Of a stretch of DNA of 64,000 nt, positions 7,364-38,734 are shown one piece after another; within the stretch, counting starts at the first letter, position 1; each line of letters starts with the position of its first letter. A program made the position numbers and the translations under genes. Source of the DNA: Blastocatellia bacterium (GTDB lineage: Bacteria > Acidobacteriota > Blastocatellia > RBC074); assembly GCA_031409955.1 (NCBI GenBank), contig JANNYF010000012.1:25927-89926 (forward strand), read 5' to 3'. Under the pieces are notes generated by a model. The model was given only the letters and a program-made list of their open reading frames with translations. It made no database searches and was not told the origin of the DNA.

Positions 7364-7442
7364 CTTCTTTGCTCTTCCGAAAAGTCGGAGTACTATCCAG
7401 CCAAGCGGCTAAAATTCAACAAACTGAATACTGGAGGAACCC

Positions 7443-10400
7443 ATGCGTTTATTAACCCTGCTCGCGCTCCTTTGCTGTTGCCACTTGGCCTTTGCCCAAA
7501 CCAATGCAGCCCTTTCTGGCACAGTCACCGATAAAACCGAAGCAATGATTCCTGGGGCGACCATCATCGCCGAACACGTTAAGACAGGCGTCAAAAACAC
7601 GACGACTTCGAACGATTCAGGCGTGTACTCGTTTCCGACGTTGCAACCGGGCGTGTACCAAATCTCAGCAGAAAAACCAGGCTTCAAGAAATTGGTCATG
7701 ACGAATTTCGGCTTGGAAATCTCGGCGCGCGCGAGCCTCAATCTGGCGCTCGAAGTTGGCGAGATTACGGAAAGCTCTGTCAACATCAGTGCCGCTGTTG
7801 ATACCGCGCTGGCGCTCGGCACAAATTCTGTGGGCGGCGTCATCAATGGACAGAAGGTGCAAGAACTGCCCTTGCCCGGACGCGATGCGTTGGGCTTGGT
7901 GTTGACCCAGGCGGGGCTGGTGGGCAGCAACTTTGCGGGCGCGCGCATCGGCACGCTGAACGTCTCGCGCAACGGCATCAATGTGATGGATCAGCGCATC
8001 AATTCCGGCGTGAACTCTACGTTTTTTAATAGCGTGGATACAGTGGATGAAGTCAAAGTTATTACGTCCCCCGCTGACGCCGAATACGGGCGCGGCTCCG
8101 GGCAGGTTCTGATTACGACCAAATCCGGCGGCAATCAATTTCACGGCAGCGTCTTCAACTTTCATCGCAATACCGCGCTGAATGCTAACACGTGGTTCAA
8201 TAACCTGCAGGGCATTCCGCGCAATACGTTGATTCGCAATAATTATGGCGGACGATTGGGCGGTCCGATCTGGTTTCCCAAGAAAGCCTTTGGCCCCATG
8301 AACTATGACGGACGCAATCGCAGCTTCTTCTTCGTTGCCTTTGAAGGCACGCGCGAACGAGCGAAAGCACCAACGACGGTCACTGTCTTCACACCAACGG
8401 CCAAACAGGGAATTTACCGCTTTTATCCTGGCGTCCGAAACGGCAATGCCAATGCGGCGGTGCCGACCGTTGATTTGTCCGGGAATCCGATCAAGCCCGC
8501 AACAGCGACAGGCGACTTGCAAGCCATCAACCTCTTTGGACGTGATCCGCTGCGTTCGCGTCCTGATCCCACGGGGCTGGTGCAAAAACAACTGGCCGCG
8601 ATGGCACTTCCGAATAACTATCGCTTTGGTGATGGGCTGAACACCGCTGGGTATACGTGGGTGCGACCCTTCACGTTTGATTCCAATCAATTGACGATGC
8701 GCTTCGATCATCAATTCACCTCGAGTCATCGCGTCTCGGTGGAATACCTGCGCGAAACAAATGGCGGATTGAATCAATTCCTGGCGCAACCGTTGCCGGA
8801 TTCGCCGGGCGGGTCGTATCAAGACAACACGAATTTTTATTCGATCTCGTACATTGCTACGCTTTCGCCCCGGTTAGTCAACGAAGTACGCGGCGGTGCT
8901 TCCCGCACATTGATTCGCTTTGAAGCGCCGTGGGAGTCGTCAAGCGGGCGTGCTTTTTTACCCTCGTCAAATAATCAAATCTATGTGCCGGTCTACCTTT
9001 CGGTCACGACGCCCATCAATCAAAGCAACGATCCGCAAGGCCGGATTTCGCCTCTCTATCAATACAGCGACACAATCACCTGGTTGCGCGGCAAGCACAA
9101 TTTCAAAGGTGGCGCAGAGGTTCGCTTTGCCAGCACGAACGGCTTTAATTCCTTTACGGTGTTGCCGCGTGCGGCGATTGGAGTGGGCGGCCCTGCCATT
9201 ACCAATATTTCCACTATCCCAAACATTGGATTGAATTTGGGAGGGGCGCAAAACATGCTGAATGATTTGACCGGCTCGCTCTCGACGATTCAACAAGCCT
9301 TCAATTCGCCCGGCGGACAATCCCCGACCTTCCTCGCTGGCGAAGGCAAACAACGCACGTGGCGGCAGCGTGAATTCAGTTTGTTTTTCAAAGACGATTA
9401 CAAAGTGAGACCAAATCTGACGCTGAATCTGGGCGTGCGTTACGAATATTACGGCGTTCCGTGGGAGGCCAACGGCAAGACGGCGGGACTCGTCAATGGC
9501 TCCGCTGGCATCTTCGGAATTTCCGGGACAGGCTTTGCCGATTTGTATCAACCGGGCCGCAACAACGGGCAATTGACGCAAATCAAATTGGTCGGCAAAA
9601 AATCGCCGAATGGGGGCGAACAACTCTACCGTGACGATTGGAATAATTTTGCGCCAGCGGTCGGATTGAGTTGGTCACTGCCGTGGTTGGGACGAGATAA
9701 GACGGTACTGCGCGTGGGCTACGGTATTGGATATGAACGCAATTCGCTGCGGTTATTGGATGTCGTCGCGGGCGATCAACCGGGCTTGCGCACGGTGACG
9801 ACTTTTCGGCAAACCGCCTATCTGGATTTGTCCAAAGTGGTCTTGCCGCTCACGCCCGACGTGGCCCCGTTGACGACTGTGCCGTTGACGGATCGCACAC
9901 AAACTGTCCGCGCATTTGATTCCAACCTGCGCACCCCGTATGTCCAGAATTGGAATCTCTCGATCCAGCGCCAATTGTCATCCAACTTCGCGTTGGATGT
10001 ACGGTATGTCGGCAACAAAGGGACCAAGCTGATTCGCGGCGCGAATATCAACGAAGCCAATATCTTTGAGACGGGGATTCTGGAAGCCTTCAATGCCGTG
10101 CGCGCAGGCGGGACGCATCCATTTTTGGAAAACATGTTTCGCGGTTTGAATCTCGGTTCTGGTGCTATCAACGGTACAACGGTTACAGCAGGGCAATCGC
10201 TCCGCGCTAGCACGCAAACGCAAGGGTTTTTTGCGAACGGCAATGTAGGCGGTTTTGCCAACTTCGTGAACAGCACCAATCTGTTCACGGGCGTGGCGGG
10301 AGGGTTGTTGCGCCGCGCAGATTTGCCGGAAAACTTTATCGTTGGCAATCCGCAATTCGCAGCGGCGAATCTGACGGGGAACTACGCGAACTCCACCTAT

Positions 10401-11219
10401 CATTCATTGCAGGTGGAATTGACCAAGCGTCTTGCCAACGGCTGGACGTTGCAAAGCAATTACACGTTCAGCAAAGCCATCGGTGAAGAAGAAGGCGCGG
10501 GGCAAGAGCAATTGGATAGCTACCGCAACGGCCGCAATCGGCGGTTGGACAAACGGCTGATGAGTTTTCATATCCCGCACGTGTTGCGCAACAGCGGCAC
10601 ACTTGAGCTGCCTTTTGGGCCGGGTCGTAAATTCTTGAGCAGCGGAAATCGCGTCGTCGCGCGCCTGGTGGAGCGCTGGCAATTCGGGTTGATTTACAAC
10701 CTGTTCTCCGGCTCGCCGCTGGGCATTAGTTCCGGCGTCTCCTCGTTCAATCAATTCACCGACAACACACCCATGTTGGTGGGCAACTTTGCGCCCAACC
10801 TGGGCAAGATCAAGCGCGTAGACAATGGCGTGATTTTCTTTGATGGGTTGAAGCAAATTGCTGATCCTGCCATTGCCAACGTGACGACTTCGCAAAATCT
10901 GCGCGCTTTGAGTACGTTGCAAGCCATCACGGATGCCAATGGACAAGTCTTGCTCGTCAATCCGACGCCCGGTCAGTTGGGCAATATTCAGCAGTCCTAT
11001 TTGGTTGGCCCCGGATCATTTCGCTTTGACATGAATTTGATCAAGCAAATCCGATTCCGGGAAAAGGCGAATTTCGAGATGCGGCTGGATGCCATCAATG
11101 TTCTGAATACGCCGCAATTCGGTACGATTAACACGGACATCAATTCGACGAACTTTGGACGTGTTACGAATGCGGGCGGTACTCGCCTGTTCGCCGCTTC
11201 GTTGCGGATTAACTTCTGA
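7443..11219 (+). CDS. TonB-dependent receptor-like outer membrane protein with N-terminal CarboxypepD_reg domain
   Basis: Signal peptide, then GTVTDKTEAMIPGATIIAEHVKTG...GVYSFPTLQPGVYQISAEKPGFK (carboxypeptidase regulatory-like fold). About 1250 aa with a C-terminal beta-barrel ending in the aromatic residue F. A hallmark Acidobacteria family. Confidence 0.85.
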   Translation: MRLLTLLALLCCCHLAFAQTNAALSGTVTDKTEAMIPGATIIAEHVKTGVKNTTTSNDSGVYSFPTLQPGVYQISAEKPGFKKLVMTNFGLEISARASLNLALEVGEITESSVNISAAVDTALALGTNSVGGVINGQKVQELPLPGRDALGLVLTQAGLVGSNFAGARIGTLNVSRNGINVMDQRINSGVNSTFFNSVDTVDEVKVITSPADAEYGRGSGQVLITTKSGGNQFHGSVFNFHRNTALNANTWFNNLQGIPRNTLIRNNYGGRLGGPIWFPKKAFGPMNYDGRNRSFFFVAFEGTRERAKAPTTVTVFTPTAKQGIYRFYPGVRNGNANAAVPTVDLSGNPIKPATATGDLQAINLFGRDPLRSRPDPTGLVQKQLAAMALPNNYRFGDGLNTAGYTWVRPFTFDSNQLTMRFDHQFTSSHRVSVEYLRETNGGLNQFLAQPLPDSPGGSYQDNTNFYSISYIATLSPRLVNEVRGGASRTLIRFEAPWESSSGRAFLPSSNNQIYVPVYLSVTTPINQSNDPQGRISPLYQYSDTITWLRGKHNFKGGAEVRFASTNGFNSFTVLPRAAIGVGGPAITNISTIPNIGLNLGGAQNMLNDLTGSLSTIQQAFNSPGGQSPTFLAGEGKQRTWRQREFSLFFKDDYKVRPNLTLNLGVRYEYYGVPWEANGKTAGLVNGSAGIFGISGTGFADLYQPGRNNGQLTQIKLVGKKSPNGGEQLYRDDWNNFAPAVGLSWSLPWLGRDKTVLRVGYGIGYERNSLRLLDVVAGDQPGLRTVTTFRQTAYLDLSKVVLPLTPDVAPLTTVPLTDRTQTVRAFDSNLRTPYVQNWNLSIQRQLSSNFALDVRYVGNKGTKLIRGANINEANIFETGILEAFNAVRAGGTHPFLENMFRGLNLGSGAINGTTVTAGQSLRASTQTQGFFANGNVGGFANFVNSTNLFTGVAGGLLRRADLPENFIVGNPQFAAANLTGNYANSTYHSLQVELTKRLANGWTLQSNYTFSKAIGEEEGAGQEQLDSYRNGRNRRLDKRLMSFHIPHVLRNSGTLELPFGPGRKFLSSGNRVVARLVERWQFGLIYNLFSGSPLGISSGVSSFNQFTDNTPMLVGNFAPNLGKIKRVDNGVIFFDGLKQIADPAIANVTTSQNLRALSTLQAITDANGQVLLVNPTPGQLGNIQQSYLVGPGSFRFDMNLIKQIRFREKANFEMRLDAINVLNTPQFGTINTDINSTNFGRVTNAGGTRLFAASLRINF

Positions 11220-11239
11220 TTAGGAATCACGAAGTGGTT

Positions 11240-11303
11240 CGATAAACTACAGTTTGTCGGGCGTTATAACCTCTCACGCCGGACGACAAACTGTAGTTTA
11301 TCG
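11240..11303. repeat. Family B palindromic element: perfect 20-bp inverted repeat (cgataaactacagtttgtcg / cgacaaactgtagtttatcg), 24-nt spacer
   Basis: Seen directly. Related to the copy at 27517-27598, with shared core GACAAACTNNAGTTTNTCGGACAG. Confidence 0.6.
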
Positions 11304-11743
11304 GACAGTTGTCGCCAGTTATGCGCAAGCCCTACTGATTTTATACCTGCGGGCGTATTTGGAAATTCGATCTTTGCCGTTAGCTCCAGAGGAGCGAGCT
11401 ATTTATAGTAGGAGCGCGCCATTTTACCCAAGCTCCAGAGGAGCGAAATGTGTCCGATGCCGCTCCGATGGAGCTAGACAGTATCTGGCGATACGGTGGC
11501 TATAAAGATTCCGCGCCGCTGGCGCTAATTCCCAAACACGCTCTGAGAGGCATAGTGGTGAGTCAGCTCTGTGCCTCTTGTTTTTCCTCATCCTCACCAG
11601 ATTAACTCTCAGCAAAACTGACGCGCCGCTTTTTTTTCGCTGCGTCGCGGTGTCCCCGTGTCGCCCTTCTATGCTATTCTTGCGCCGCTGGAAACAGTGG
11701 TTGGTCACGCGGTATTCAGAATTCAAAATTAGTGTTCACGGTC

Positions 11744-12682
11744 ATGCCTGAATTTGTCTTCCAATTCGGCTCTTATTTCCCCACTATCGGGTGGAAAGAC
11801 CTGCTCGACATTTGCATCGTCGCGTTTTTGGTGTACGAAGTCTTGCGATTGATTCGCGGAACACGCGCCGTGCAGATGGCTGCCGGGCTGATCGCCCTTG
11901 CGTTTTTGTATCAAGTCTCGCGGTGGTTCGGCCTTGATACCGTGGAATGGGTGTTGCGCAATGCGGTGGTGTATTTGGGCGTGGGGATTATTGTGCTTTT
12001 TCAGCGCGAACTGCGGGCGGCCTTGCTGCATTTCGGCAAAAACTTTCGGCAACCCTTTGTGCGCCGACGTGCCAATGCTCACGCACACAGTTGGTATGAC
12101 GACGTCGTGCAGGCGGCGCTGGATTTAGCGAAAGATAAGATTGGCGCGCTGATCGTCCTTGAGCGCGATGTTGGGTTGAAGACCTACGTCGAAAGCGGCA
12201 TTCGATTGGATGCCCGGTTGACCTACGATTTGCTGGTGACGATTTTCAATACGAATACGCCTTTGCACGATGGCGCGGCAATCATCAGCAAACATCGGCT
12301 GGCAGCAGCGTCCTGCTTCCTGCCCTTGACCCAAGCCCCTTATACGGCACGAAAGCTAGGGGCGCGGCATCGCGCGGCGATTGGCATTACCGAAGACACG
12401 GATGCGTGCGCGGTGGTCGTTTCCGAAGAAACTGGCAAGATATCCTATGCCGTTGGTGGTCGGCTGACGCCCGATCTGGATGCGCCGCGCTTACGCCGTC
12501 TGATTCAACAAGCGCTGGAACCCTGGCATACAGACGAAGAGGCGGAGGCCATCGAAGTCGAAGAACGCGAGCATGAACTAGCCATGCAGAACATTCTGGA
12601 TGAGCGACGGGCCAGCGTCAGAGGCCATCATGAAATTCCCGAACCGTTCAGCGAAAATTTGCCAGAGGAGGTCAAGCCGTGA
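11744..12682 (+). CDS. cdaA: Diadenylate cyclase (c-di-AMP synthase), membrane-anchored CdaA/DacA
   Basis: N-terminal TM helices followed by a DAC domain (HDGAAIISKHRLAAASCFLPLT, LGARHRAAIGITEDTDACAVVVSEETGKISYA). GTG at 11732 is an alternative start. Confidence 0.85.
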   Translation: MPEFVFQFGSYFPTIGWKDLLDICIVAFLVYEVLRLIRGTRAVQMAAGLIALAFLYQVSRWFGLDTVEWVLRNAVVYLGVGIIVLFQRELRAALLHFGKNFRQPFVRRRANAHAHSWYDDVVQAALDLAKDKIGALIVLERDVGLKTYVESGIRLDARLTYDLLVTIFNTNTPLHDGAAIISKHRLAAASCFLPLTQAPYTARKLGARHRAAIGITEDTDACAVVVSEETGKISYAVGGRLTPDLDAPRLRRLIQQALEPWHTDEEAEAIEVEEREHELAMQNILDERRASVRGHHEIPEPFSENLPEEVKP

Positions 12683-13473: not shown

Positions 13474-13552
<79 letters not shown>

Positions 13553-13691: not shown

Positions 13692-14570
13692 TTAATTGAG
13701 TTCGACCAACTCAATCGCCACCATATCTGGCCCTTCAATCAGGGCTGCCCGCATTTGGCTTTTGCCGAAGCGATGCGGTTCTTCCAGGATTTTCACGCCT
13801 TCTTTCCGCAATCGTTCCAGCGTGGCGTTGAGGTTGGGGACGCTGAGGGCAATGTGATCTACCACGTGTCCACGTGAGCTGACAAGCGCTTCAGGACGTT
13901 GGCGGGGGTAGATAATCAGACTGACTTCGCCAAATCGAATGGTGGTGGCTGGCGAGCGAATTACGCCGAGCGGTTCGCTTGGCGCGGCGAAAGGGACTTC
14001 GCACGCGCCTGTGCGTTGTGCGCGGCTCGTTGCGCCGAGATGTTTGATATACCAATCAGCAGCGCAGAGCGGCGCGGCGCTGACTAAATGGACGTGCAGA
14101 AACGCGCGCGTGTTGGCTGTATTGATTTCAACCAGAGCGTTGTCCGGCGCTTTCAGATAGGCGAAGAGCAAGTTGGCATTCAAGCGCGTCAGTGGCGTGG
14201 CAAAGGTGATGCCGTTGGCGAGATGCTTTTGATAATCGCTCTCCATCGCCGTACTGCCCCAGCCAAAATGCCAGATCGCGCTGTCCAATGAAGCGATGGG
14301 GGGCTTGCTCACTTGATTGAAGAGCAAGTGCATTTTTTCGCTTTGCACGCTCTCCCAGCCTGCTAGTGACGCTTTCTTCGTTACATCAAAAGTTTTTGTA
14401 TAGAAATCAATCGCGGCGGGCGGATTGGTGGAATTCAAGTGAACGTGATGGAAGCCAATGGGCGCAGGCGTTTCCTGCGCCTTTGCGATAAAGACGATAA
14501 GAATTGCCACAATGAGGCAAGGAAGAAATGGGAAGCCGTACGATAGACAATCCTTCCACTGCTTTTTCAT
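13692..14570 (-). CDS. Secreted two-domain VOC (glyoxalase/bleomycin-resistance/extradiol dioxygenase superfamily) protein
   Basis: Signal peptide, then two VOC-like halves (FHHVHLNSTNP..., HVVDHIALSVPNLNATLERLRKEGVKILEEP). Start taken at MKKQWKD. Confidence 0.6.
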   Translation of the reverse strand: MKKQWKDCLSYGFPFLPCLIVAILIVFIAKAQETPAPIGFHHVHLNSTNPPAAIDFYTKTFDVTKKASLAGWESVQSEKMHLLFNQVSKPPIASLDSAIWHFGWGSTAMESDYQKHLANGITFATPLTRLNANLLFAYLKAPDNALVEINTANTRAFLHVHLVSAAPLCAADWYIKHLGATSRAQRTGACEVPFAAPSEPLGVIRSPATTIRFGEVSLIIYPRQRPEALVSSRGHVVDHIALSVPNLNATLERLRKEGVKILEEPHRFGKSQMRAALIEGPDMVAIELVELN

Positions 14571-14590
14571 GGAGGTTCTCTTTCTCCGGT

Positions 14591-15139
14591 TCATTCGGCC
14601 TTGCGAAACCACGGATTGCCGAAATTGGTATACGGGCCATTGTCCACGGAAATCTGTACGAGCAAGCGGTAATGAGCGGGAGAGAGCATCAATGTTTTGC
14701 CTTTCAACTTGATCGTTTTGCCGTTTTTCTTGAGCGGCTCTGTTTCCCAGAAAATTGTGTAATACCCGCCGAGGTCGCCGCCAATTGGGCCGACTTTTTT
14801 CAGCACTAAATTACCGAACAGCCCGGTTTCAGACCGTGTGACCTGTTTCTGTTTCTCGTTGTAATCGGTAGTCGCGCGGCCTTTGAGGATGCCGCTCGGC
14901 CCTTCGCCTTCGATGATGCTTTCGTATTTTCCGTCGGCAATTTTCTTGTAGGTTTCTTTGCCCTTGAGCTTGCCTGCCGGGCCAAGTGGAGATTCAGGTA
15001 CGTTCCATTCAAACGTCCACGCGCCCACAAAGTAATCCATGTTTGGCGGTGGCGTTTGGTCAGTCGGCTCGGTTGGACGCGACGGTTGTTGCGGTGCTTG
15101 TTGGAATAATAACAAGGCTAAAATCAGGGCTTTAATCAT
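14591..15139 (-). CDS. Secreted hypothetical protein (DUF1579-like)
   Basis: Signal peptide [12 protein letters not shown], a Pro/Thr-rich linker and a roughly 140-aa beta-rich domain. Family assignment tentative. Confidence 0.5.
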
Positions 15140-15248: not shown

Positions 15249-16679
15249 TTATTTGCTCGCGCTCTGCGATGGTTTCGTTAAGACCTTGCTGTCAACGGTG
15301 TACTCAAACCACGGGATAAACATCTCATCCCAACTCTGCTCGCTCCAATAGACTTCCTTGTTGGGCGCGGGATTGTAGCGGTTCTTGATTGAGTTGTCGT
15401 AATGCGCAACCGCCTGAATCCGGCTTCCGGCGGGAATCTTGAGTGGTTCTTTTAGCTCATAATGCAACTGCCAATTGAAATCGAACTTCGGCACATAGAG
15501 CAAAACCTGCTTGCGACCATCCGGCCAAATCAACGTGTATTTGATGTCTTTGCCGCGCAAGTGCATGTGCGGCGCAAAGGCATACAACGTGATCGCTTCT
15601 TTGATCGGTGTTTCGGCGCTGATTTCCCAGTTGTCTACACGGGGCGGAATGTTCGGAATCCTGCCGCGCACTTTGACTTCTTTGCCGTTGACTGTGCGGG
15701 TCTCTGCTAACTCTTTGCCTTCGATGAAAACATTGTCCGTGACGCCTTTGGTCAGTACTTCGTACTTGGGCGGTTGCTTGGCAAACCAAAGCCCTAAACG
15801 CGAGCGATCTTTCTCCGCACGACCACTCGGTTGATAGTGCATATTGAACTGAACGTACATGCCCGGCAGGATGCGTTTCGCCGTACCTGCGGGATGTTTC
15901 TCAAAGCCCTTGCCCGGCGCTTGTCCGACTAACTTGAATGCGCCGGAACGCGTGAACGAATCCTGACTCTGCGCCACTTCGCGTGTTACGCCTTCACTCA
16001 GTCCACCGGTCTCACGGGCGGATTGGCTGTTGAGTGCCGAAGTGGCTCCATCCGCACGAACGGCTCTGCCATTGACGATCTTTGCGCCTTCCGGCAGCCG
16101 CACGACGTTGGCGATGGAGTGATGCACGACGGCTGGATTGCCGGGGCGAAGTTCGACTTTCTCGACCCATCGTTCTTCATTGAAGGGAAGCGGCACATAG
16201 AAGTTTTGCATCGGCAATTCGCCCTCCGCAGGAACTTCAAAATCAATCGGCATTTCGATGACTACATCTGGTTCGCCGAACGTCCAACCGGGCGTGTAAT
16301 TCGGCATCTTGGGCAAGTCTTTGTCATCGCCTTTTGGCGCGCCTGCGTCTACCCAAGTCGTGATGAGCTTGATCTCTTGTTCGGATAAGCGACGGTCGTT
16401 GCTGAAGTGGGCGGTCGAGATGTTTGGATCAGCAAACCACGGCGGCATCGTCCGTTCGACGACTTCTTCGCGGATGGCTTTGCTCCACGGACGCACTTCG
16501 GCATAAGACGTCAGCGGCATCGGCGCGACTTCGCCGGGGCGATGACAGTTGGCGCATTTGTTGAAGATGATGGGCGCAACGTCTTTGGTGAAGGTCACGC
16601 CAGCGGCTTCATTTTTGTTCACGAACCAAATAGTCGCGGCGCTTAGAACTGCGAACAGAATGATGGACAATCGTTTCAT
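15249..16679 (-). CDS. Fusion protein: N-terminal mono-heme cytochrome c domain plus DBH/PHM-like (copper type II monooxygenase-like) domain
   Basis: RBS ggagg precedes ATG at 16679. Signal peptide. CANCH heme-binding motif. Downstream HH...(about 70 aa)...H...(about 66 aa)...HMH...(about 75 aa)...DEMF spacing mirrors the PHM/DBH CuH (H,H,H) and CuM (H-x-H, Met) sites, with a conserved YDFNWQ. Confidence 0.65.
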
Positions 16680-16690
16680 GGCGTACCTCC

Positions 16691-18007
16691 TTAGCGGCTT
16701 GAACTGCTGGCAACTTGCGGCTGCGCTTTGCGCAAATCCTGTTTGTCGAGCGTGTAATCTACATACCCGATCATCATTTCTTCCCACGTCTGATCGCCCC
16801 AACGAACCGTTGCCGTTGGATCAGGATTGAATTTATTTTTCGGCGAATTGTCGTAATGGGCGACACAAATGAGCTTGCTGCCTTTCGGCACGGCGAGTTC
16901 TTCTTTTAGCACATACGTTAACTGCCAGCCAAAATCATAGCGCGGCACCGACAGAATGACTTTCGACGTGCCATCAGGATAGACGAGCGTGTATTTGAAA
17001 TCTTTGCCGCGCACGTGCATGTGTGGATGCAAACTGTCAACGTGGCTGTCTTCTTTGAAGACCATTTCAGAAATGACTTCGTGATTGTCTGCACCGGGCG
17101 GAATGGCAAAACTGCTTTGCACCGCGCCCGCCGTAATGACACGTTTCTGCACGGGTTCTTTGGCGAAGATTAAGCCAATGCTGGTGCGGTCTTTGCCCAC
17201 TTCGCCGTTCGTGGTGTAGTGAATCTGGAAGATCAGCACCGAACCTTTCTTGACGAGTTTGGCTTGACCGTTGCGCAGTTCCAGCGGCGCTTCACCCGGT
17301 GCCCATCCGACCAGACGGCCATCTGAATCGGCGGGACGTTCACTTGAACTTCGACGAACTGAAGCGAGGTCGGCGGGATTGATTTCACCGGGCTTCGGCA
17401 AATCGCCTTGATCCGGGTAACGCACGCTTACGATGACGTGATGCAAATGCGCGCGATCACCCTGTCGAATCTCAGCGAATTGCACATACTTGTCTTCGGT
17501 GAAGTTCGTCGGCACCGCGAAATATTTGTACGGAATGACGCCTGTGACGGGAATGTTGAATTCGGTCGGCATCGTCAGCACGACGTCTGGTTGCCCGATT
17601 TGCCAGCCCGTTGTGTACGTTGGATTGGGCGGCATATCTTTCGGCTCACCTTCTTTCGCGCCGCCCTCAACCCAGGCCACAATCGTATCAATCTCTTTTT
17701 GTGACAGGCGCGCATTGTTGGAAAATTCACCGTGATTGGGATCGGCGAACCACGGCGGCATGACGCGGGAAACGACCTGTTCACGGATGGATCGTGCCCA
17801 CGGGCGCACCTCTTTGTAGTTCATGAAAGACATTGGCGCGACTTCGCCGGGACGATGGCACATCTGGCAATTTTTTTGAATGATCGGTGCCACATCTTTG
17901 GTGAACGTCACAGTTGCGGCAGACGTTTGCCGCAACAAGACAGATGATAATCCGATGCCGAGCATTGCAATCGCGCCCAACACACACAGGAACAAAGTAC
18001 GTTTCAT
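16691..18007 (-). CDS. Fusion protein: cytochrome c domain plus DBH/PHM-like copper monooxygenase-like domain (tandem paralog)
   Basis: CQMCH heme motif. [17 protein letters not shown] and TWEEMM motifs at the same spacing as the downstream paralog. 11-nt gap to the next gene. Confidence 0.65.
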
Positions 18008-18141: not shown

Positions 18142-18576
18142 TTACTTGCTGTCTTTTGACTTTGATCCAAGGCTGCGCAGGAATAGCACAACCTGCCAAA
18201 TTTGCTTGTCGTTCAACTTTTCTTTGTAGGCCAGCATATCCGCCGAAACGCCTTCTTTGACAGCCACAAAGATTTCACCATCGGTTGAACCGTAATCCCA
18301 CGCGTCATCCGTTAAGTCAGAAGGCGTGCCGCCCGACAACGCCATCCCGCCATCGCCTTTGCCATTCGGCCCGTGACACGAAGCGCAATAACGCGCATAA
18401 ACCTTCTTGCCTGCATCAATCGTTTCTGCGTTGCTCGGTTCTGGGTTCTTCAGCTTCTGCGCCTCCGCATTGCGGCGTGGTTCTTGCGATGCGTTCGCCG
18501 CTACTGCAACAAAGATCGCCCCCACCGCCAGCAGCCGACCGACCACCGACCAATTACTATTCCTGTGGTACATCAA
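18142..18576 (-). CDS. Class I c-type cytochrome (soluble/anchored mono-heme)
   Basis: Signal/anchor helix, then [17 protein letters not shown] (CxxCH) and a distal Met-containing segment. Confidence 0.8.
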
Positions 18577-19036
18577 AATTCTCCACTAAATACTCTGGGT
18601 GCATTTCGCGCAGGTACAAGAACAATTCGTGCACCAGATTCACCAGCCGATTCACCCCATACGCGTACTCATCGTTTTTGACCTTGAGCGAGATGGACAC
18701 CGCACCGCGCTGATTTGTACAAGACAACACGGCGCGCGCACGATCAATGCGCCGATGCTCCGGCAATTCGCCAGCGTGTCGCTCCGCCAAAAAGGTTTTC
18801 AATTCGCCGTACAATTCTGAACCCGTCGGAATGCCCGGCAGCAGTTGCTTGAAGCGCAACACCTGCTTTTCTGTATCTGCGATCAATTCCATCTCGCGGC
18901 GTAAGAGCCAAACGAAGGTGAACTGCCCGTTCTTGTCTTCACTGAAGCCGCGAAAGACGCCACGATCTGCGTAGGCTTGTAAACTTTCTCTGACTTCATC
19001 CAGAGGCTTATGGGTTCGTTTGGGAGCCGTTTTCAT
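18557..19036 (-). CDS. Hypothetical protein translationally coupled to doc
   Basis: ATG at 19036 overlaps the doc TGA stop in an ATGA arrangement. No recognisable motif. Confidence 0.45.
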
Positions 19037-19470
19037 ACACCTAACAGATTTTGAAACCAATCAGCTATTTCTGGAATTGTGCGCGGTGACATGTTTTCAC
19101 CGCGTGACTGGCGCAGATTTTCTTCTGCCAGCGAAACGCAGAAATCAATCACATCATTGATCGGTAACTTCTCCGGGATCACGTACCCGCAGTTGTCGAG
19201 AAAAAAGATCGCTGCTGCGAAGGCCGTTCGTTTCGTCCCGTCCATAAATGGATGGCTTTTGACCAGCGAATGAAACAGCGCAGCAGCCTTTTCAAAATCG
19301 GTTTCGTAAAGCTCCTGCCCGCCGAATGCCGCAAAAGGTCGTGCCACCGCCGAATGCCGCATCGTTGCTTCGCGCAATCCTACAATGCCGCCTGTTTCCG
19401 CGATGATGACCTCGTGTATTTCATAGACACGGACGAGTAAATTAGCGACCTCATCGGCATAATCAGTCAT
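19033..19470 (-). CDS. doc: Doc (death-on-curing) / Fic family toxin
   Basis: Fic/Doc signature [15 protein letters not shown]. About 145 aa. Immediately downstream of a small RHH-like gene. Confidence 0.8.
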
Positions 19471-19475
19471 CGGGG

Positions 19476-19697
19476 TTACCGTTGCGCCAGGGTCTCAAAT
19501 AGTTCACGGTTTTGCGTAATTAACTGCCGCACGAACGGGATGGCGCTTTCACTAAAGCGGCTACCGTTTGCTGTCGGTTGCTGCGCCAGCCAGATTTCTA
19601 CGGCAGCGATTGCAACGGCTTCCACATCTTTTTCAGGAATCGCGCGCGTGCGCAATTGTTCGGTCAAGGTTTCAGGTAATTCGATTGTTAGTGTCAT
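19476..19697 (-). CDS. Ribbon-helix-helix/Phd-like antitoxin
   Basis: 73 aa. N-terminal TLTIELPETLTEQLRTRA is RHH-like. 5-nt gap to doc. Confidence 0.55.
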   Translation of the reverse strand: MTLTIELPETLTEQLRTRAIPEKDVEAVAIAAVEIWLAQQPTANGSRFSESAIPFVRQLITQNRELFETLAQR

Positions 19698-19709: not shown

Positions 19710-21653
19710 TCAGTGATTATACGACATGCAACCTGGTTCGACCGTGCCTAAAAAGCCCGGCTCATATTGCTGCCTGACCCAGAATTCTTTCTTCGCCTGA
19801 CAGTTGATGAGCGATGGCCGACTCTCTTTCACCGCGATTTGATAACAGCGTTCCAGCGCCGCGCGGAAATCACCCGGCTGGGTGACGTACTCGCCGTGCG
19901 CGCCGAGTCCTTCCGCGACTTTGTCATAACGCACGTTCTCTTGGAAGAGCTGTAAGCTCAGCGTCACGGGGCTGCGCGCGTTGCCCGTCCACGTGCCCCA
20001 GGCGTTGTTGTTGTAGACGATGACGATGATTGGCAGGCGATACTTCGAAGCGGTTTCGAGTTCCATGATCGTGTAGCCAATGCCCGCATCGCCCGTGACC
20101 GCAATCACTGGCGCGCCTTTGTACGCAGCTTGCGGGCCGATGCCGTGTCGCACCGCTACCGCCGCGCCGATTGCATAGCCGACATCCGGCCCGATATTGC
20201 CGTACTGATAAGCGCCGTTGAGAATCTGGCCCGGACGATAGCCACGCATCCGGCGGCGCACATAACGCGCGATGCCATAGCCGCCTGCGACAAAGGTCGT
20301 CTGTTCTTTGGGCAGCTTGCCATTGTACATAAAGTCAGTCAGCTCTTTGGCAATCACCGCCGGATGCACGGCGTCGGTGTAGCTCAAACCCTTCGCGTAA
20401 TGAGCATCATTCTCGTCCTCGAACTTTTTGCGCGCGGCAGCAATCTCCGCCACCCACGCATCGTGCTGCATTTTGGGCATTGCGTCAGCGAGTGCTTCCA
20501 AGGCGGCCTTTTCGCAACTGACCAGGCCAACATCAATCGGCAGATTACGGCCAATGTCTTCCACGCTGGGATCAATGCGGATGTATTTCGCATCCGGCCC
20601 AAAAGCGAAATCAATCACCGTCGGCATGCAGTACTGACCAACCAACATCACAACATCGGCGCTCGCCAATGCACCCGGCGACGCATTGGCCGAGAGTGGG
20701 CTTGCATCGGAGAATTGCCCTTTCATCGCGCCCGATTCAACCACCGGAATCTGCGCCTTTTCGGCCAGCGCCTTCAGTGCATCCCACGCGCGGCTGTAAA
20801 AGACGCCGTTGCTGGAAACGATGATCGGGCGCTGCGCCTGTTTGAGTAACTCGACCGCCGCCGCGACATCCTTCGGTCCCGGATGCGGCTTCGCAGTGGT
20901 ACGGTAGTGGGTCTTGTCATAGTAGTAATTCAAATCGCTCGCCGTTTTGAAGCTGGCACGCGCAACTTCAGCCGGAAAGTCCAGATGCACTGGGCGCGGA
21001 ATGCCGGAGCGCAACTGCCGAAACGCATACGCGCCATATTCATGCACACGGGCGGGCGTGATCAGACGTTTGCCGTATTTCTTCAAACCTTCGGTGGTTG
21101 GTTGCTGATATGCGAACTGGTTACCCGCCTCAGCGTCCTCTTCCAAGATTGTCTTGTTACTGGCCAGGACCAGCACCGGCGAGCGCGCTGCGTTGGCGGT
21201 GGCAATAGCGTTGATCATATCGGTAAAGCCAGGCCCTTCCGTACCCGAAGCCGCCGCGACCTCGCCCGTCACACGACAGAAGCCATCGGCAGCGGAGCAC
21301 ATCGCGCCTTCGTGCCGACCCGAGTAGGCCGGGACGCCTTCGAGTGCGATGGCGTTTATGATGGGATAATTGCCTGGACAACAGAACAGCGCGGCCAAGC
21401 CTTCTTCCTTGCAGATGCGGGCAAAGACCTGTGCGCCTGACATCGGAAAGGTTGCTTTCACGGGCGGCACGGCAACCGCTTTCGCAAACTCGTCAGGAAC
21501 TTTGATGGCGTTGGTTTCCGCCGCATGGGCTGGCTGATTCACCAGCGTCGCGGCAGCCGTCGCGCCCACGCCCGTCATCGCCTTGCGCATAAATTTTCTG
21601 CGTGAAACATCGGGTGCGGAGTCTTTTCCTGTTGGGTTGGTGATGTCATCCAT
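19710..21653 (-). CDS. Thiamine diphosphate-dependent enzyme (acetolactate synthase/benzoylformate decarboxylase superfamily) with twin-arginine (Tat) signal peptide
   Basis: RBS aggaaa precedes ATG at 21653. [30 protein letters not shown] Tat-type signal. Three-domain ThDP fold with the [15 protein letters not shown]...NN ThDP-binding motif. Confidence 0.8.
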
Positions 21654-21914
21654 AACTATTTTCCTGTTCAAGTACGGAACGAAGTAGGTTCGGCGATTAT
21701 GAATTCGCGTAAGTTGTTCGCAAAACTTCAGAATGTCAGTAACGGTTGTTTTCGGTAGCGCTTGATTGAATGCTTGCCCAGATGAAAATCCGCCCAGAAT
21801 ATACGCCCAACTAAACTACTTTTGCAATGAGTTGCTGACCGTCCGGTAAGCATAGTAGGATTCTCGCTCGTTCACCTTCTGGCGCAAATATTCAATTACT
21901 TACAGGAGACAGTG

Positions 21915-23846
21915 ATGAAGCTACCCCGCAGGTTATTTTTGACAGTCCCGCGAAGCACGTTCACGACCATTGTCATGCTTGTGATTCTTGCGGGCTTCTG
22001 TTGGTATGAGGCCATTGCTCCGGCAGCCGCAAACCTCAACATCAACCCATCTTCATTGAGTAATCTGCCCGCTTTGCAACAAGCCGCTGTCGCCACTTCG
22101 CCCGAAGGCGAGGCCATTTACAAACAACGATGCGCAGTTTGTCACGATAATCCCGGAGATCGGATTCCGCCGCTGTTTCTCATTCGGCGTCGTTATGCTG
22201 AAGACGTCATACAAACTCTCACCAGCGGTTCGATGAAGCAACAGGCGGCGGGGCTGAGCGCGGAGCAGATTAAGGCATTGGCGCTGCACTTGACTGGAAA
22301 GCAGCCGGGGCTACCTTTGCAGTTAAATAACAAAGTCAATCTTTGTGGTGGAACGCCTGTGCAGCTTAACCTCAAAGCGCCAAACTGGAATGGATGGGGG
22401 CGTGATTATGACAACTCGCGCTTTCAGCCGAAGCCGGGCCTCAAAGCCGAAGACGTGCCGCGCCTAAAAGTGAAATGGGCGTGGGCGCATCCGGGGCCAA
22501 TGGCGACAGGGCAGCCGACAATCATCGGAGATCGTTTGTATGTCACGACCGAGATGGGACAGCTTTATTGTCTCAACGCGCAAACAGGTTGCACCTATTG
22601 GACGATGAATGCGGGCGCAACAGTGGTGGCGGCGATGAGTGTTGGTGCCTTGCCCGCCGGATCACCGGCTAAATATGCCGTTTATTTTGGCGATGCGAAA
22701 TCCCAACTCCAAGCGGTGGATGCAATGACCGGCAAACTGTTGTGGAAGACCAAGGTGGAAGATCATTTTCTGGCCCGCATCACAGGCGCACCTGTACTCT
22801 ATCGCAATCGCATTTATGTGCCGGTTTCGTCGTATGAAGAAACGGCTGGACGCGATCCCAAATACGAATGCTGCAAGTTTCGCGGCAGCGTGGTGGCGCT
22901 TAATGCAAACACCGGCAAGATCATCTGGAAAACGTTTACGGTGCAAGAGGAGCCGAAGCCTTTCAAGAAGAATTCAACCGGCACACAAATGTATGGCCCG
23001 GCAGGAGGCGCGATTTGGTCTGCGCCGACACTTGATGTGAAGCGCAATGTTTTGTACGTCGGCACAGGCAATTCGTACACGGATGTTGAGACGGGCCAGA
23101 CCGATGCGATCATGGCGTTTGATCTGACCACCGGCAAAGTGAAATGGACGAATCAACTCACCCCGAAAGACAACTACCTCGTCGGTTGTCGGCAACCCGG
23201 CGTGGGCAATTGTCCGAAAGAAGCTGGCCCCGATTACGATTTCGGCAGTTCGCCCATTTTGCGCACCCTGCCCAACGGCAAGCAGATTCTGATCACAGGG
23301 CAGAAGTCTGGCGCTGTCTACGGCCTTGACCCGGACAACAATGGGAAGAAAATTTGGGAGGCCAAAGTTGGCGGCGGCGGTGCGCTCGGCGGGATCGAAT
23401 GGGGCTTTGCGGCGGACGCGGAAAATGTGTATGTGCCGATGGCCGATGTAGGTGGGCCAAACCGCAAACCCGGGATTACGGCCTTGCAGATTGCGACAGG
23501 TGCAAAACGCTGGTATGTGCCTGCTCCCCCGGCAAAATGCAATTGGGGGACGACCCGTTGCAATAACGCCCAATCCGCCGCCGCGACGCTTATCCCCGGC
23601 GTCGTCTTTTCCGGCACGATGGATGGTCACTTACGCGGATACGCCACCAAAGACGGCACAATCCTTTGGGATTACGACACTGCCGCGCCCATCCAGACAG
23701 TCAACGCCGGTCTGACGAAAGGCGGCACGCTGGATGGTGGCGGGCCAACGGTGGCGAATGGGGTACTGTATACCAATTCCGGCTACGGTCGAATCGTCGG
23801 GCAACCGGGGAATTTGTTGTTGGCCTTTACCGTAGACGGCAAGTAA
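21915..23846 (+). CDS. PQQ-dependent dehydrogenase with N-terminal cytochrome c domain (polyvinyl-alcohol dehydrogenase-like quinohemoprotein)
   Basis: RBS caggagac. N-terminal anchor/signal, CAVCH heme motif, then an 8-bladed PQQ beta-propeller with W/G motifs. N-terminal heme placement matches PVA-DH-type quinohemoproteins. Confidence 0.75.
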
Positions 23847-27914: not shown

Positions 27915-29678
27915 CTATGGAGTCCTCGCGGACAGCACAACTCGCAACCCGATATTGTTGAGGCTGGTGACGCCGGGCTGAATAACGGAGCGGCTGGCGG
28001 AGTGGCAATAAATAGCGCTGCGGCCCCACGCCCCGCCCCGCACTACCCGCTTACTATTATCGTCTCCCGTCACCCAGGCGCTTCCGTCACTCGGCGCACC
28101 GGCATAATTTTCGTGCCACATATCTTCGCACCACTCCGCCACGTTTCCATGCATGTCATATAACCCAAATCCATTCGCCACCCCCAGACTTCCCACTGAC
28201 TTGGTGCGAAAACTATCCTTTGCGGCTTGCTGGTTGAGATAGATCCCATTGTAATTCTCAATCTGAGTGCTGAGCGTATCGCCAAAGGCAAACGCAGTTG
28301 TCGTCCCCGCGCGTGCGGCGTATTCCCATTCGGCTTCGGTGGGCAGCCGATAATTGTGTCCGGTTCGCGCGCTCAGTTTGCGGCAGAACTCCTGTGCCTC
28401 TTCCCAACTCACTTGTTCTACGGGCAGATCCATATCGCCTTTGAAATGGGCGGGATTGTTGCCCATGATTGCTTGCCACTGCGCCTGTGTCACCTCATAG
28501 CTGCCCATCGCAAACCCGCTGACGCGCACTTGATGCTGTGGCTGGTTATTAGTGAACCACCCGAGTTGCGCGTATTTGTCGTAGCGTTTGGCTTCTGCAA
28601 AAGCCTTTTGTGCTGCGCTGTTGGTCGAACCCATCTGAAATGTCCCGCCCGGAATTTCCACCATCGGTAATTTCACGCCGTTGCCCAAATCTTCGACGAA
28701 GCCCCAGCCTTGGTCTTGCCGTTGGTTCACGACGTTTCCATTCACCTCTACGCTGGCGGTCACAAAGCTCATGGCTGCGAGTGGCACGCCTGCCACACTC
28801 ATCCGCACCGTTGGCTTCGTGACGGGCGGCGCAGTCGCAGTTACGGGCGTGGGTATGATTACTGGCGGTGGTGGCATAGCACTATTGGGCGGAAGGAAGT
28901 AAAAATCTTCGCCTTCAACCGAGGTGTATTCATACGGCACTTGCTGACCGCCCGATTTGCTGCGCACGCTGGTGCGGGTGCGGCGGAAGACGGATTCCAA
29001 CGTCAGTCCCGGTGTCTTCAGGTTCGTCAACAGTTCTTGCGTGAAGAGTCCGTTGCGGCCTGCGCCATCGCTGGCGACATTATTCTCGGCGGTAGCATAC
29101 GCGACCAGGGTTCCGGTGGGTGCGCCGCGCGTTATGGCTAACCCGCGTGACTCCGTGCGGAAGCTGCGCGCAAACGGATTGTTGCGGCAGGCATCGAGAA
29201 TCACGATGTTGAGCTTGTTGCGTGCATCCTCCATTTGTGCCAGTACGAAATTCACGCTGACGGATTCATCTTCGACTTCGGTGTCTTTGGTGATCTCTGC
29301 GCCCACGGGAATCATGAAATTTGTGTTGTTCACCTGCACACCGTGCCCGGCGAAGTAGAACAATCCGACGCCACCGTTGCGAATCTTCTCGCCAAACTGA
29401 CGGATCAACTCGCGCATTTGTTTCCGATTTTGGTCCGCCCCGTGCAGCACTTCAAACCCGGCGGTACGCAATGTGGCCGCGATGTCGTGCGCATCGTTGA
29501 CGGGATTCGTCAGTGAGCCTTGCGCATACGCGCCGTTACCGATGACGAGCGCGATGCGTCGTTCGTTCGGGGTTTGTCGTATCACGTTGAGACTCCGATC
29601 CTGCTGGGCGTGAGAAATCATCTGTGGCATCAGCGCGATGACACAAAATAGGGTGAGAACCAATCTGCCAAGATACAT
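27915..29678 (-). CDS. Secreted caspase-like (peptidase C14) domain protein fused to a formylglycine-generating-enzyme (FGE/SUMF1) type domain
   Basis: RBS ggaga precedes ATG at 29678. Signal peptide. IALVIGNGAYA...HG...FYFAGHG...DACRN caspase His/Cys dyad context. C-terminal RLPTEAEWEYAARAG...GLYDMHGNVAEWCEDMW...VVRGGAW FGE-sulfatase motifs. Confidence 0.8.
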   Translation of the reverse strand: MYLGRLVLTLFCVIALMPQMISHAQQDRSLNVIRQTPNERRIALVIGNGAYAQGSLTNPVNDAHDIAATLRTAGFEVLHGADQNRKQMRELIRQFGEKIRNGGVGLFYFAGHGVQVNNTNFMIPVGAEITKDTEVEDESVSVNFVLAQMEDARNKLNIVILDACRNNPFARSFRTESRGLAITRGAPTGTLVAYATAENNVASDGAGRNGLFTQELLTNLKTPGLTLESVFRRTRTSVRSKSGGQQVPYEYTSVEGEDFYFLPPNSAMPPPPVIIPTPVTATAPPVTKPTVRMSVAGVPLAAMSFVTASVEVNGNVVNQRQDQGWGFVEDLGNGVKLPMVEIPGGTFQMGSTNSAAQKAFAEAKRYDKYAQLGWFTNNQPQHQVRVSGFAMGSYEVTQAQWQAIMGNNPAHFKGDMDLPVEQVSWEEAQEFCRKLSARTGHNYRLPTEAEWEYAARAGTTTAFAFGDTLSTQIENYNGIYLNQQAAKDSFRTKSVGSLGVANGFGLYDMHGNVAEWCEDMWHENYAGAPSDGSAWVTGDDNSKRVVRGGAWGRSAIYCHSASRSVIQPGVTSLNNIGLRVVLSARTP

Positions 29679-29910
29679 TGTTGCAATCTCCTGATGGAAC
29701 CAAGTATTGCTGAGCGATGCGCATTTTACACATCTCTCAAAATCAATGCACAGGAAAATTGGAACTCGGTACGGTACGAGGAGCGGTGGCAACTGGATAC
29801 TCTAGGTCTCTCAACTCGCTACCGCTCGCCGTACTCTACCGATTCTTCCGAAGTTTGCTACAATGCGCCCTCTTGCAATCCAAATATAGCAACGATTGAG
29901 GAACTCATCC

Positions 29911-38300: not shown

Positions 38301-38734
38301 CGGGAATTGAACCCTTTCGACAAATTCGTGGTGGTGGTTTGGATTAGCTCTGCACCTTCCGCCGAGATTTCGACGGTTTCTGTTTGAATGCCGACTTGTA
38401 ACGCGACGGGCACGTCGGTCGTTTGATTCAAGCCCACGCGGACATCGCTCAAGGTCAGCTTTTTGAAATTGGCTGCCTCGATGGTGATCTGGTAATCGCC
38501 CGCCAACAAGTTATTGAAGCGGAACTCGCCATCGCCGCTAGATTCGGCGGTCACGGTATGGCTGGTCTTGCGATCCGTGATGCTGATTTTGGCGCCGGGG
38601 ACAATCGCGCCGCTGGGGTCTTTCACGATGCCGCGCACATTGCCGGTGGTTTGCTGTGCCAGCACCGGGCAGAGAAGAGAGATGAGTAAGAGAAGTAAGG
38701 TTGTGACTTGCGTCATTGGCGATAGTTTTTTCAC
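35351..38734 (-). CDS. TonB-dependent receptor-like OM protein with CarboxypepD_reg N-terminal domain
   Basis: RBS aaggag. Signal peptide. GIVKDPSGAIVPGAKISITDRKTSHTVTAESSGDGEFRFNNLLAGDYQITIEAANFK. About 1127 aa. Confidence 0.85.
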   Translation of the reverse strand: MKKLSPMTQVTTLLLLLISLLCPVLAQQTTGNVRGIVKDPSGAIVPGAKISITDRKTSHTVTAESSGDGEFRFNNLLAGDYQITIEAANFKKLTLSDVRVGLNQTTDVPVALQVGIQTETVEISAEGAELIQTTTTNLSKGFNSRQVVELPQTSITTANSASSGIYNLALLAPNVTGSGGLGLGTGGSVGGQRPRNNNFVVDGIDNNRKDISGPAVYVSPETVSEFSILTNQFAAEFARSTGGQFIVASKSGGNEYHGTLYSFFRNRYLNALDTTQKNAGVVREQNAPGTTFMPRYDFARYGGNIGGPLHLPRFGTGGSPIINGKDRLFFFVSYEGLGIGNAAAPAGLTSPTAAGFAALDRIAGLSAPNLALFKQYVPTAPTNDAGTIAVNGVNIPVGNISFDAPNWTNQRNFVLNLDYTQSEKTQHRGRFTYNRLRAIDNNATLPAFFFLNPTDGRLFSYTFLHTFTPKLTYEMRLSYRRFVNDVSIPDTKFPIAGFDSFPNVGLKDLGIDIGPDPNGPQYNTENNYQLINNISYLAGNHSLKFGADVRKSISPQTFVQRERGDYQYNTTDRFLRDLNPDFLAERNVGASKYYGDQILFFGFGQDEWRMRPNLTLNAGVNYVYQQVPFGASLQKLNAISNVPGLIEFGAPTAQKKNFGPRIGLVYAPNYDSGPLGFLFGSGGKSSIRAGFSMAYDVIVDNLYILSSPPQAQVTVNIPATPDINNFLANGGIHNVVPATATSAAAARAATSAWVDNQQVPYAMSYSLSIQRQFLTNWSLETRYLGTRGVHLPTQNRLNVQPKTTDTIFLPTYLSRPAQADLDRLTVTLQDTINPRSRFVPAYANAGFNGANVVAFVSNGSSTYHAFSSSLTRRFTGGFLANAAYTWSHNIDDSTAEVFSTVLAPRRAQDFQNMRAEKANSILDHRHRLAVSGIYDLPFFAKSSHRLARSLFGGFSFAGTFSYESGEHVTVLSGVDANLNGDAAGDRSIINTNGVKNTSSLVTALTNTAGKTVGYLATNPNAQYIQAGLGARATAGRNTLALPAINNIDFSLSKDFAVTETKKLQFRADFINGLNHPQYVSGTPNSVVPIATQAVGNVNTVGRAQFNQPDLVFSSNPRLIQFALRLKF

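Follow-up and report, generated by a model that had tools for sequence, protein, structure and literature searches.

The window analysed here is the whole 64-kb stretch of contig JANNYF010000012.1 (positions 25,927 to 89,926 of the forward strand) from the Blastocatellia bacterium assembly GCA_031409955.1, and all positions given below are counted in it. Its minus strand carries a gene for the precursor of a thiamine diphosphate (ThDP)-dependent enzyme, the N-terminus of which is predicted to be a twin-arginine translocation (Tat) signal. ThDP-dependent decarboxylases and carboligases are normally cytoplasmic or located in organelle matrices. The gene and the relevant parts of its product are as follows.

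19710..21653, minus strand: gene for the ThDP-dependent enzyme precursor, 647 aa (open reading frame list and sequence; Pfam TPP_enzyme_N, TPP_enzyme_M and TPP_enzyme_C)
21522..21653, minus strand: predicted twin-arginine signal peptide, residues 1–44 (TIGR01409; conservation)
21582..21605, minus strand: Tat consensus S17-R18-R19-K20-F21-M22-R23-K24, SRRKFMRK (clade consensus; arginine codon usage)
21444..21521, minus strand: clade-specific N-terminal extension of the mature protein, about residues 45–70 (conservation; alignment start of distant homologues)

The gene runs from an ATG at 21653 to a TGA at 19712–19710, and an AGGA resembling a Shine-Dalgarno sequence lies 8 nt 5' of the ATG. An in-frame TTG at 21671, six codons before the ATG, overlaps this Shine-Dalgarno-like site, and the orthologues begin MDD... 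or MSD..., which makes the ATG at 21653 the probable start. The gene's translation opens with precisely the N-terminus quoted in the original prediction, which had placed a ThDP enzyme at these coordinates, and the strand is the minus strand. The enzyme assignment was confirmed by Pfam, with TPP_enzyme_N (residues 71–173, 83.6 bits), TPP_enzyme_M (263–388, 79.5 bits) and TPP_enzyme_C (466–618, 87.4 bits) in canonical order, all above their cut-offs and with E values of 1e-22 to 1e-25. The predicted mature enzyme has 603 aa, a mass of 65 kDa and a pI of 7.3.

The signal is composed of a variable polar n-region, the SRRKFMRK motif, an h-region of about 14 residues rich in Gly, Ala and Thr, and the c-region NQPAHA. 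According to the AxA rule, cleavage is predicted between AHA and A, directly after A42-H43-A44. Residues 1–56 alone score 21.2 bits against the TIGR01409 TAT_signal_seq model, the curated cut-off of which is 16.7. Accordingly, the description of this N-terminus as a textbook Tat signal in the original prediction holds in each of its elements, namely SRRxF, a weakly hydrophobic stretch and AxA. Among the open reading frames of at least 150 aa in the window, none besides that of the ThDP enzyme contains [STGAD]RRxF in its first 80 residues. Since the SRRKF motif stands alone in this set and is conserved throughout the clade, as described below, it is no chance match.

Homologues were searched for in 5.8 billion proteins and the top 120 were examined, which share 77–88% identity with the enzyme, measure about 640–660 aa and come mostly from metagenome-assembled genomes of Acidobacteria/Blastocatellia. 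S/T-R-R-x-F was found in 118 of them at position 4–36, the remaining two being N-terminally truncated gene calls. In a scan of GTDB with one genome per species, 386 genomes contained a relative, and the locus counts given here refer to the best 80 of these. A strict motif pattern matched in 78 of the 80 loci; the motif of locus L037 was recognized by eye, and L057 is truncated. The clade consensus, S-R-R-(K/R/N)-F-(I/M/L)-(T/A/R)-K-A, corresponds to the textbook SRRxFLK, position 22 being I or L rather than M in most orthologues. Both R18 and R19 are invariant in all 78 loci with the strict pattern, with all six arginine codons in use at both positions, while the n-region before them varies freely in length and sequence. 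This combination indicates selection at the protein level and hence a start upstream of the arginine pair. A start downstream of the pair, which the original prediction had named as grounds for giving up the signal, is thereby contradicted. The residues at –3 and –1 of the cleavage site are small in most orthologues (AHA, ASA, VQA, AAA), and a few orthologues are without a clean AxA (AGVSAD in P0104 and AASE in P0117).

The boundaries of the clade were examined by exhaustive HMMER search of 1.84 billion cluster representatives. Besides many fragments, full-length members are P0241 (878 bits, 61% identity), P0242 (675 bits, 50%) and P0245 (591 bits, 49%), and the next full-length matches, of 545–620 aa, reach at most 235 bits and 33% identity. 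Alignments of these outside relatives set in between their own residues 1 and 10, opposite residue 70–73 of the query, indicating that they begin at the PYR domain without a signal. The RR motif is present in all three distant representatives, in P0245 after correction of a frameshift. Conservation of the arginine pair in orthologues, the other point on which the original prediction had made its reading depend, was thus found in the close homologues, in the species loci and in the distant members alike. Because every member with an intact N-terminus has the pair, the Tat signal is a defining character of a sharply bounded clade.

P0245 could be taken for a clade member without the arginine pair, as PEEIF stands where SRRDF would be expected. 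This was rejected, since the DNA upstream (L087, positions 163–215), which begins ATG GAA AAG and continues to TCC CGA AGA GAT TTT TT, encodes MEKKNGISRRDFF before the frame changes in a run of seven T. The exception is apparently a frameshift, whether a sequencing error, an assembly error or real, or a gene-calling artefact. P0245 also has D for the catalytic E, and NAQYGGCIT instead of GTEGPGFT.

Nearly all of the best 80 loci are labelled Acidobacteriota (Blastocatellia, Vicinamibacterales, Terriglobia and, as for L068, Chloracidobacterium). About 12 are labelled otherwise (Heliomicrobium, Clostridia, Planctomycetia), which we take to be mislabelling. The clade belongs mainly to Acidobacteriota and occurs once in a proteobacterial-type context. 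Besides the signal, its members carry an N-terminal extension of about 25 residues (PIKVPDEFA...PVKA.FPM) that is missing from the cytoplasmic relatives and in which I50, P53 and F56 are at least 90% conserved. The C-terminal tail, ...EPGCMSYNH, is likewise clade-specific and is invariant to the last residue. In one acidobacterial subclade (L071, L072 and L073, about 10160–12630), the signal peptide is followed by a long linker rich in Ser, Thr, Pro and Arg before the enzyme begins.

Concerning catalysis, E115 (in GRHEG), G521-D522-A523-G524 and, after a spacing of X24, N548-N549-N550 are invariant in 61 clade sequences and align to the same motifs of 2-hydroxyacyl-CoA lyase (HACL; CoA, coenzyme A). 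In view of this conservation the protein looks catalytically competent. No curated NCBIfam cut-off is reached. Among the models of acetolactate synthase (ALS), NF004516 gives 211 bits against 587 and TIGR00118, for the biosynthetic enzyme, 166 against 538, the other ALS models being far below their cut-offs; the automatic label 'acetolactate synthase large subunit-like' was therefore rejected. The models of oxalyl-CoA decarboxylase (OXC) give 192 bits against 557 (NF006721) and 183 against 739 (TIGR03254), and the HACL model NF058623 gives 154.5 against 600. With a clade profile, the nearest solved structures are those of HACL/S (2-hydroxyacyl-CoA lyase/synthase) and OXC, with E values from 6e-59 to 2e-47 (phmmer, 7e-45). 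They are followed by BbmA, benzaldehyde lyase/formolase, glyoxylate carboligase, ALS and pyruvate oxidase.

In ApbHACL/S, R156 and R276 bind adenosine diphosphate (ADP), and R260 and R400 bind acyl-CoA (PMC11271303). In a profile alignment to 8vzc (native numbering plus 3), the position of R156 is occupied by V or I in the clade (GVPRP versus GRPG in HACL) and that of R276 by the invariant C342 (GQYCMP versus GARFNW in HACL). R260 lies in an insertion without counterpart in the clade, and R400 alone is kept, as R466. The last 40 residues of the clade enzyme fail to align to the HACL lid. Where enzymes of the ALS/pyruvate oxidase type show a segment of the kind G-x-R-F-D-D-R, the aligned clade sequence reads GQYCMP. 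The alignment to characterized families that the original prediction had proposed thus located the catalytic Glu and the ThDP motif and revealed the loss of three of the four ligand-binding arginines of HACL/OXC. With these arginines missing and the curated cut-offs missed, identification of the enzyme as OXC or HACL was rejected. The loss of the CoA and ADP contacts would fit a compartment that holds neither ligand.

HACL/S and OXC (PDB 6xn8, 8vzk, 8vza/c/f, 8vzj, 7pt1, 2q27, 2c31) agree with the clade in the order of their domains (PYR-R-PP), in the catalytic Glu and in the motif GD(A/S)...NN, whereas their identity to it is only about 25–33%, the clade scores 154–192 bits against cut-offs of 557–739, and the Tat signal and the 25-residue N-terminal extension belong to the clade only. 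We know of no CoA thioester pool in the periplasm. Benzaldehyde lyase/formolase (PDB 2ag0, 3iae, 4qq8) and glyoxylate carboligase, which belong to this superfamily as well, are CoA-independent and can be aligned along their whole length (E about 1e-48). They serve as a model of the mechanism by which an acyloin could be cleaved when no CoA substrate is involved, but they are more distant than HACL/OXC, cytoplasmic and without signal peptide. Pyruvate oxidase (PoxB/POX), also of this superfamily, oxidizes the ThDP-bound enamine and feeds the respiratory chain, and may serve as a conceptual model for coupling to a cytochrome. Nevertheless, it is a distant match (E about 2e-31, N-terminal and middle domains), POX requires flavin adenine dinucleotide, and PoxB acts on the cytoplasmic side.

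The genes around the ThDP gene in the window are listed below.

18557..19036, minus strand: p159, a protein of 159 aa without signal peptide (synteny; predicted fold)
18142..18576, minus strand: monoheme c-type cytochrome with one CASCH and a Sec-type signal (Pfam Cytochrome_CBB3 and Cytochrom_C)
19033..19697, minus strand: Phd-like antitoxin (19476–19697) and Fic/Doc toxin (19033–19470; Pfam Fic, E 2e-15)
21912..23846, plus strand: pyrroloquinoline quinone (PQQ) beta-propeller dehydrogenase with an N-terminal cytochrome c domain (Pfam PQQ and Cytochrome_CBB3)
16691..18007, minus strand: secreted protein A, with the haem-c motif CQMCH and a domain that resembles the C-terminal one of copper type II monooxygenases (Pfam Cu2_monoox_C)
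15249..16682, minus strand: paralogue B of this haem-c/copper-monooxygenase-like protein, 42% identical to A
14591..15139, minus strand: secreted 182-aa protein (p182) with weak resemblance to DUF1579 (E 0.003, below cut-off)
13692..14612, minus strand: secreted protein of the glyoxalase/vicinal oxygen chelate (VOC) superfamily (Pfam Glyoxalase, E 4e-17)

In 68 of the 74 loci with at least 700 bp of downstream sequence, p159 follows the ThDP gene on the same strand. The gap between the two genes is at most 150 bp in 45 of these 68, with a 4-bp overlap in two cases, and exceeds 700 bp in 18. A cytochrome c gene comes directly after p159 in 60 of the 66 loci with room for it. The ThDP enzyme, p159 and the cytochrome c thus appear to form a conserved three-gene module. 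The Phd/Doc pair, which has been inserted between the ThDP gene and p159, begins 12 nt after the ThDP stop codon and ends in an ATGA overlap of the Doc stop with the p159 start. It is missing at this position in L001–L004 and most of the 80 other loci and lies outside the conserved module. As more than 700 bp are inserted in 18 of the 68 other genomes, this junction appears to be an insertion hot spot; in L002 it holds a luciferase-like gene.

The trio also occurs far from the acidobacterial loci. On the contig of P0242 (L085) the order is hslVU, ubiE, ubiB, cytochrome c, the ThDP gene (SRRKF), p161, hisI, hisE and tatA, which we read as a proteobacterial-type context. The trio occupies 7375–11493, with tatA about 1.4 kb downstream. 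The p161 protein is a homologue of p159 (27% identity, E 4e-15), the cytochrome c is 33% identical to that of the window (E 5e-16), and no PQQ enzyme is found nearby. The 49%-identity member, P0245, is also followed by a p159 homologue (36%, E 6e-26). Such distribution suggests that the core trio travels across phyla.

Further genes of the neighbourhood are conserved more loosely. In two orthologous contigs the ThDP gene is followed, in this order, by genes for an unannotated protein (about 150 aa), a cytochrome c (about 140 aa), a PQQ dehydrogenase with a cytochrome c domain at its N-terminus, two paralogues (about 440 and 480 aa) in which a haem-c motif is combined with a C-terminal domain like that of copper type II monooxygenases, and a secreted protein (about 190 aa). 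A major facilitator superfamily transporter and a secreted glyoxalase/VOC protein are sometimes added, and all of these proteins have homologues in the window at 60–84% identity. The PQQ gene, divergent from the ThDP gene in the window and in the same operon in other genomes, lies within 10 kb in 27 of the 80 loci; within the same distance, protein A is found in 37, paralogue B in 25, p182 in 25 and the VOC protein in 30. The PQQ dehydrogenase of the window is 75–76% identical to the copies in L001 and L003 and stays far below every NCBIfam cut-off (124.6 versus 480 for the methanol/ethanol family). Its domain order, with an N-terminal and not a C-terminal cytochrome c, presumably resembles that of polyvinyl-alcohol dehydrogenase. 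Protein A narrowly passes the Cu2_monoox_C cut-off (23.3 versus 23 bits) and has a weak match to Cytochrome_CBB3. In both A and B, a CxxCH motif for haem c near the N-terminus is joined by HH and HxH...M motifs and by a borderline match to the C-terminal domain of PHM/DBH-like monooxygenases. Neither has a relative among PDB sequences at E up to 1. Possibly, the two are copper monooxygenases fused to a cytochrome.

Sec-type signals and haem-c motifs are found in these neighbours. The attachment of haem c takes place in the periplasm, whereas ThDP is made only in the cytoplasm and is bound at dimer interfaces. With respect to cofactors the cluster is coherent, in that the haem-c proteins bear Sec signals and the one protein that needs its cofactor inserted in the cytoplasm bears a Tat signal. 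A periplasmic ThDP enzyme would be in keeping with its partners, namely a cytochrome c with Sec-type signal, the PQQ dehydrogenase with its cytochrome c domain, the haem-c/copper-monooxygenase-like proteins and further secreted ones. The export to the periplasm proposed in the original prediction is thus supported by a conserved and translated signal and by partners of exported type.

The p159 protein could not be placed in any known family, as no match was obtained in Pfam or NCBIfam even at E up to 5, the TorD/DmsD/NarJ, NapD and HyaE families included. Its 505 homologues are nearly all unnamed or 'hypothetical', and several share contigs with ThDP orthologues. The structures closest to its AlphaFold2 (AF2) model (pLDDT 87.6, pTM 0.81) are those of type III secretion chaperones, of class I, and of YbjN-like proteins, and two methods support this predicted resemblance. 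The fold typical of that class is small, with about 130–160 residues in the order alpha-beta-beta-beta-alpha-beta-beta-alpha, and p159 may share it. The segment LPEHRRID is strongly conserved and is kept in the 27%-identity homologue of L085. On account of the predicted chaperone-like fold, the cytoplasmic nature of the protein and the tight gene linkage, p159 is most economically read as a dedicated escort or proofreading factor of the Tat precursor; alternatively, it may be a small subunit co-exported by hitchhiking. TorA with TorD, DmsA with DmsD, NapA with NapD and the hydrogenase small subunits with HyaE offer a similar arrangement, in which a cofactor enzyme with an SRRxFLK signal is accompanied by an adjacent small signal-less cytoplasmic partner. 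The role would be analogous, whereas the folds of TorD, DmsD and NapD differ from that predicted for p159.

Taken together, it is probable that the protein is a genuine Tat substrate, that is, a member of the ThDP decarboxylase/carboligase superfamily exported in folded form and encoded in a conserved three-gene module, and export of the enzyme as such can be proposed with good confidence. The precursor would fold, bind ThDP-Mg2+ and dimerize in the cytoplasm, possibly held by p159, which most likely escorts or proofreads it before export. The folded enzyme would then cross the membrane through the Tat translocase, be cleaved after AHA and be freed into the periplasm. A precedent for the passage of a ThDP holoenzyme across a membrane is mammalian HACL, which is imported into peroxisomes with the cofactor bound (PMC7463629).

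Most likely, the enzyme uses ThDP to bring about, independently of CoA, a decarboxylation or the cleavage of a C–C bond next to a carbonyl. The substrate may be a 2-oxo acid, an acyloin or a 1,2-diketone, which the PQQ dehydrogenase and the copper-monooxygenase-like proteins would generate in the periplasm. The monoheme cytochrome c probably serves as redox partner there, either of the enzyme or of its pathway. If the enzyme is exported, the chances that it is a non-oxidative lyase or decarboxylase are roughly even, and a cytochrome-coupled oxidoreductase is a tentative candidate. The latter is suggested by the cytochrome c being near-obligatory and retained in L085 without a PQQ enzyme, which raises the question of oxidation of the ThDP-bound enamine with transfer of electrons to the cytochrome. 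The fullest form of this idea, in which the module is a periplasmic respiratory ThDP oxidoreductase passing enamine electrons to its dedicated c-type cytochrome and matured by a new Tat escort with a type III chaperone fold, is speculative.

Several observations weigh against the proposed export and module. The mature enzyme contains 10 cysteines, which is unusual in a periplasmic protein, though a pre-folded Tat cargo tolerates them. No TatA-like open reading frame, tatA or tatC was detected in the 64-kb window, nor were other Tat components or Tat substrates found there. The AF2 model of the enzyme, built with 61 close homologues, has a pLDDT of 59.8 and is too poor for reading the pocket, the oligomer or a nucleotide or flavin site. 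In addition, p159 is missing from the 22-kb locus of the subclade L071–L073, where a cytochrome c lies 260–340 bp downstream, and at two probable second copies, and in five Vicinamibacterales loci p159 is kept with no cytochrome c next to it. In cis, therefore, neither partner is a strict requirement.

Other explanations have been considered for the same N-terminus. The enzyme might be exported by Tat with its signal uncleaved, so that an N-terminal helix anchors it on the periplasmic face near membrane electron carriers, as in some Tat substrates such as the Rieske Fe-S proteins. The variable c-region, with the few orthologues (P0104, P0117) lacking a clean AxA, would allow this, and the conserved link to a cytochrome c would suit a site close to the membrane. 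However, small –3/–1 residues prevail among the orthologues, and the h-region is short and contains much Gly, Ala and Thr, as is usual in Tat signals that are cleaved. It is too polar to anchor the protein stably, so that a permanent anchor is unlikely. Even less probable is that the peptide only docks p159 for cofactor insertion while the enzyme stays in the cytoplasm. This view takes as its analogue NarG, whose remnant Tat-like leader binds NarJ without export, and it draws on the conserved position of the p159 gene directly downstream and on the relatives that the search found outside the clade, all of them without signal and presumably cytoplasmic. Remnant leaders are degenerate and have neither h-region nor cleavage site, whereas here the three regions of the signal are intact, the TIGR01409 cut-off is passed and the arginine pair is invariant. 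Moreover, the module and the wider cluster consist of exported proteins, and the enzyme has lost residues for binding CoA and ADP, which would suit a cytoplasmic location.

Translation beginning after the arginine pair, at M22 or M26, would turn the motif into an untranslated leader and leave a Sec-type signal or none. In-frame Met codons do follow the motif (FMRKAM), and the stretch beyond could pass for a weak Sec signal. Such a start is very improbable, as the arginines are invariant through six codons with Ser and Phe kept too, which needs translation. The frame is open upstream in every locus, the ATG has its AGGA, and position 22 is mostly I or L in orthologues. Furthermore, after export by Sec the protein would arrive unfolded and without cofactor in a compartment that lacks ThDP. 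It is equally hard to credit that what is exported is no enzyme but an inactive scaffold with the ThDP fold, such as a subunit that has a binding or structural role in some periplasmic complex. The failure to reach any curated family cut-off and the remodelled nucleotide site of the middle domain could be explained in this way, but invariance extends from the Glu and GDAG...NNN to long stretches around the two ThDP-binding domains, as would be expected of an active enzyme.

While the superfamily and the pathway of export are each well known, the novelty lies in the combination of a ThDP enzyme with Tat, in the clade itself and in its chaperone-like and cytochrome partners, a gene set that points to an undescribed periplasmic enzyme system. 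Full-text literature searches returned no report of a ThDP enzyme that bears a Tat signal or is periplasmic. Molybdopterin, Fe-S, Ni-Fe, Cu, flavin, NADP and corrinoid are the cofactors of Tat cargo that we are aware of, and to our knowledge ThDP has not been described among them. If the proposal is true, ThDP would join the cofactors carried across the membrane by Tat, carbanion (umpolung) C–C chemistry would be placed in the bacterial periplasm, and an uncharacterized extracytoplasmic catabolic route would exist in Acidobacteriota, which are abundant and poorly cultured soil bacteria. In addition, p159 would be a candidate for a new type of export chaperone, and, with a cytochrome c conserved beside it, the ThDP enzyme may be connected directly with the respiratory chain. 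For one-carbon biocatalysis, too, a relative of HACL/OXC and formolase that needs no CoA and is competent for secretion could be of interest.

With regard to the remainder of the window, an Rfam scan revealed neither a thiamine pyrophosphate riboswitch nor another RNA element upstream of the ThDP gene. The sole match in the window is a tRNA gene at 13475–13548 on the plus strand, located at the cluster's distal end, where it is flanked by the VOC gene and a YbbR-like gene. Promoter and terminator scans gave no excess over shuffled expectation. A 625-aa fusion of caspase (Peptidase_C14) and FGE-sulfatase (formylglycine-generating enzyme-like) domains is encoded at 27915–29792 on the minus strand. 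Giant outer-membrane beta-barrel proteins with CarboxypepD_reg, resembling TonB-dependent receptors and typical of Acidobacteriota, are encoded at 7443–11219 (plus strand), 31531–35178 (minus strand) and 35351–38734 (minus strand). These three proteins could import the substrate of the periplasmic cluster.

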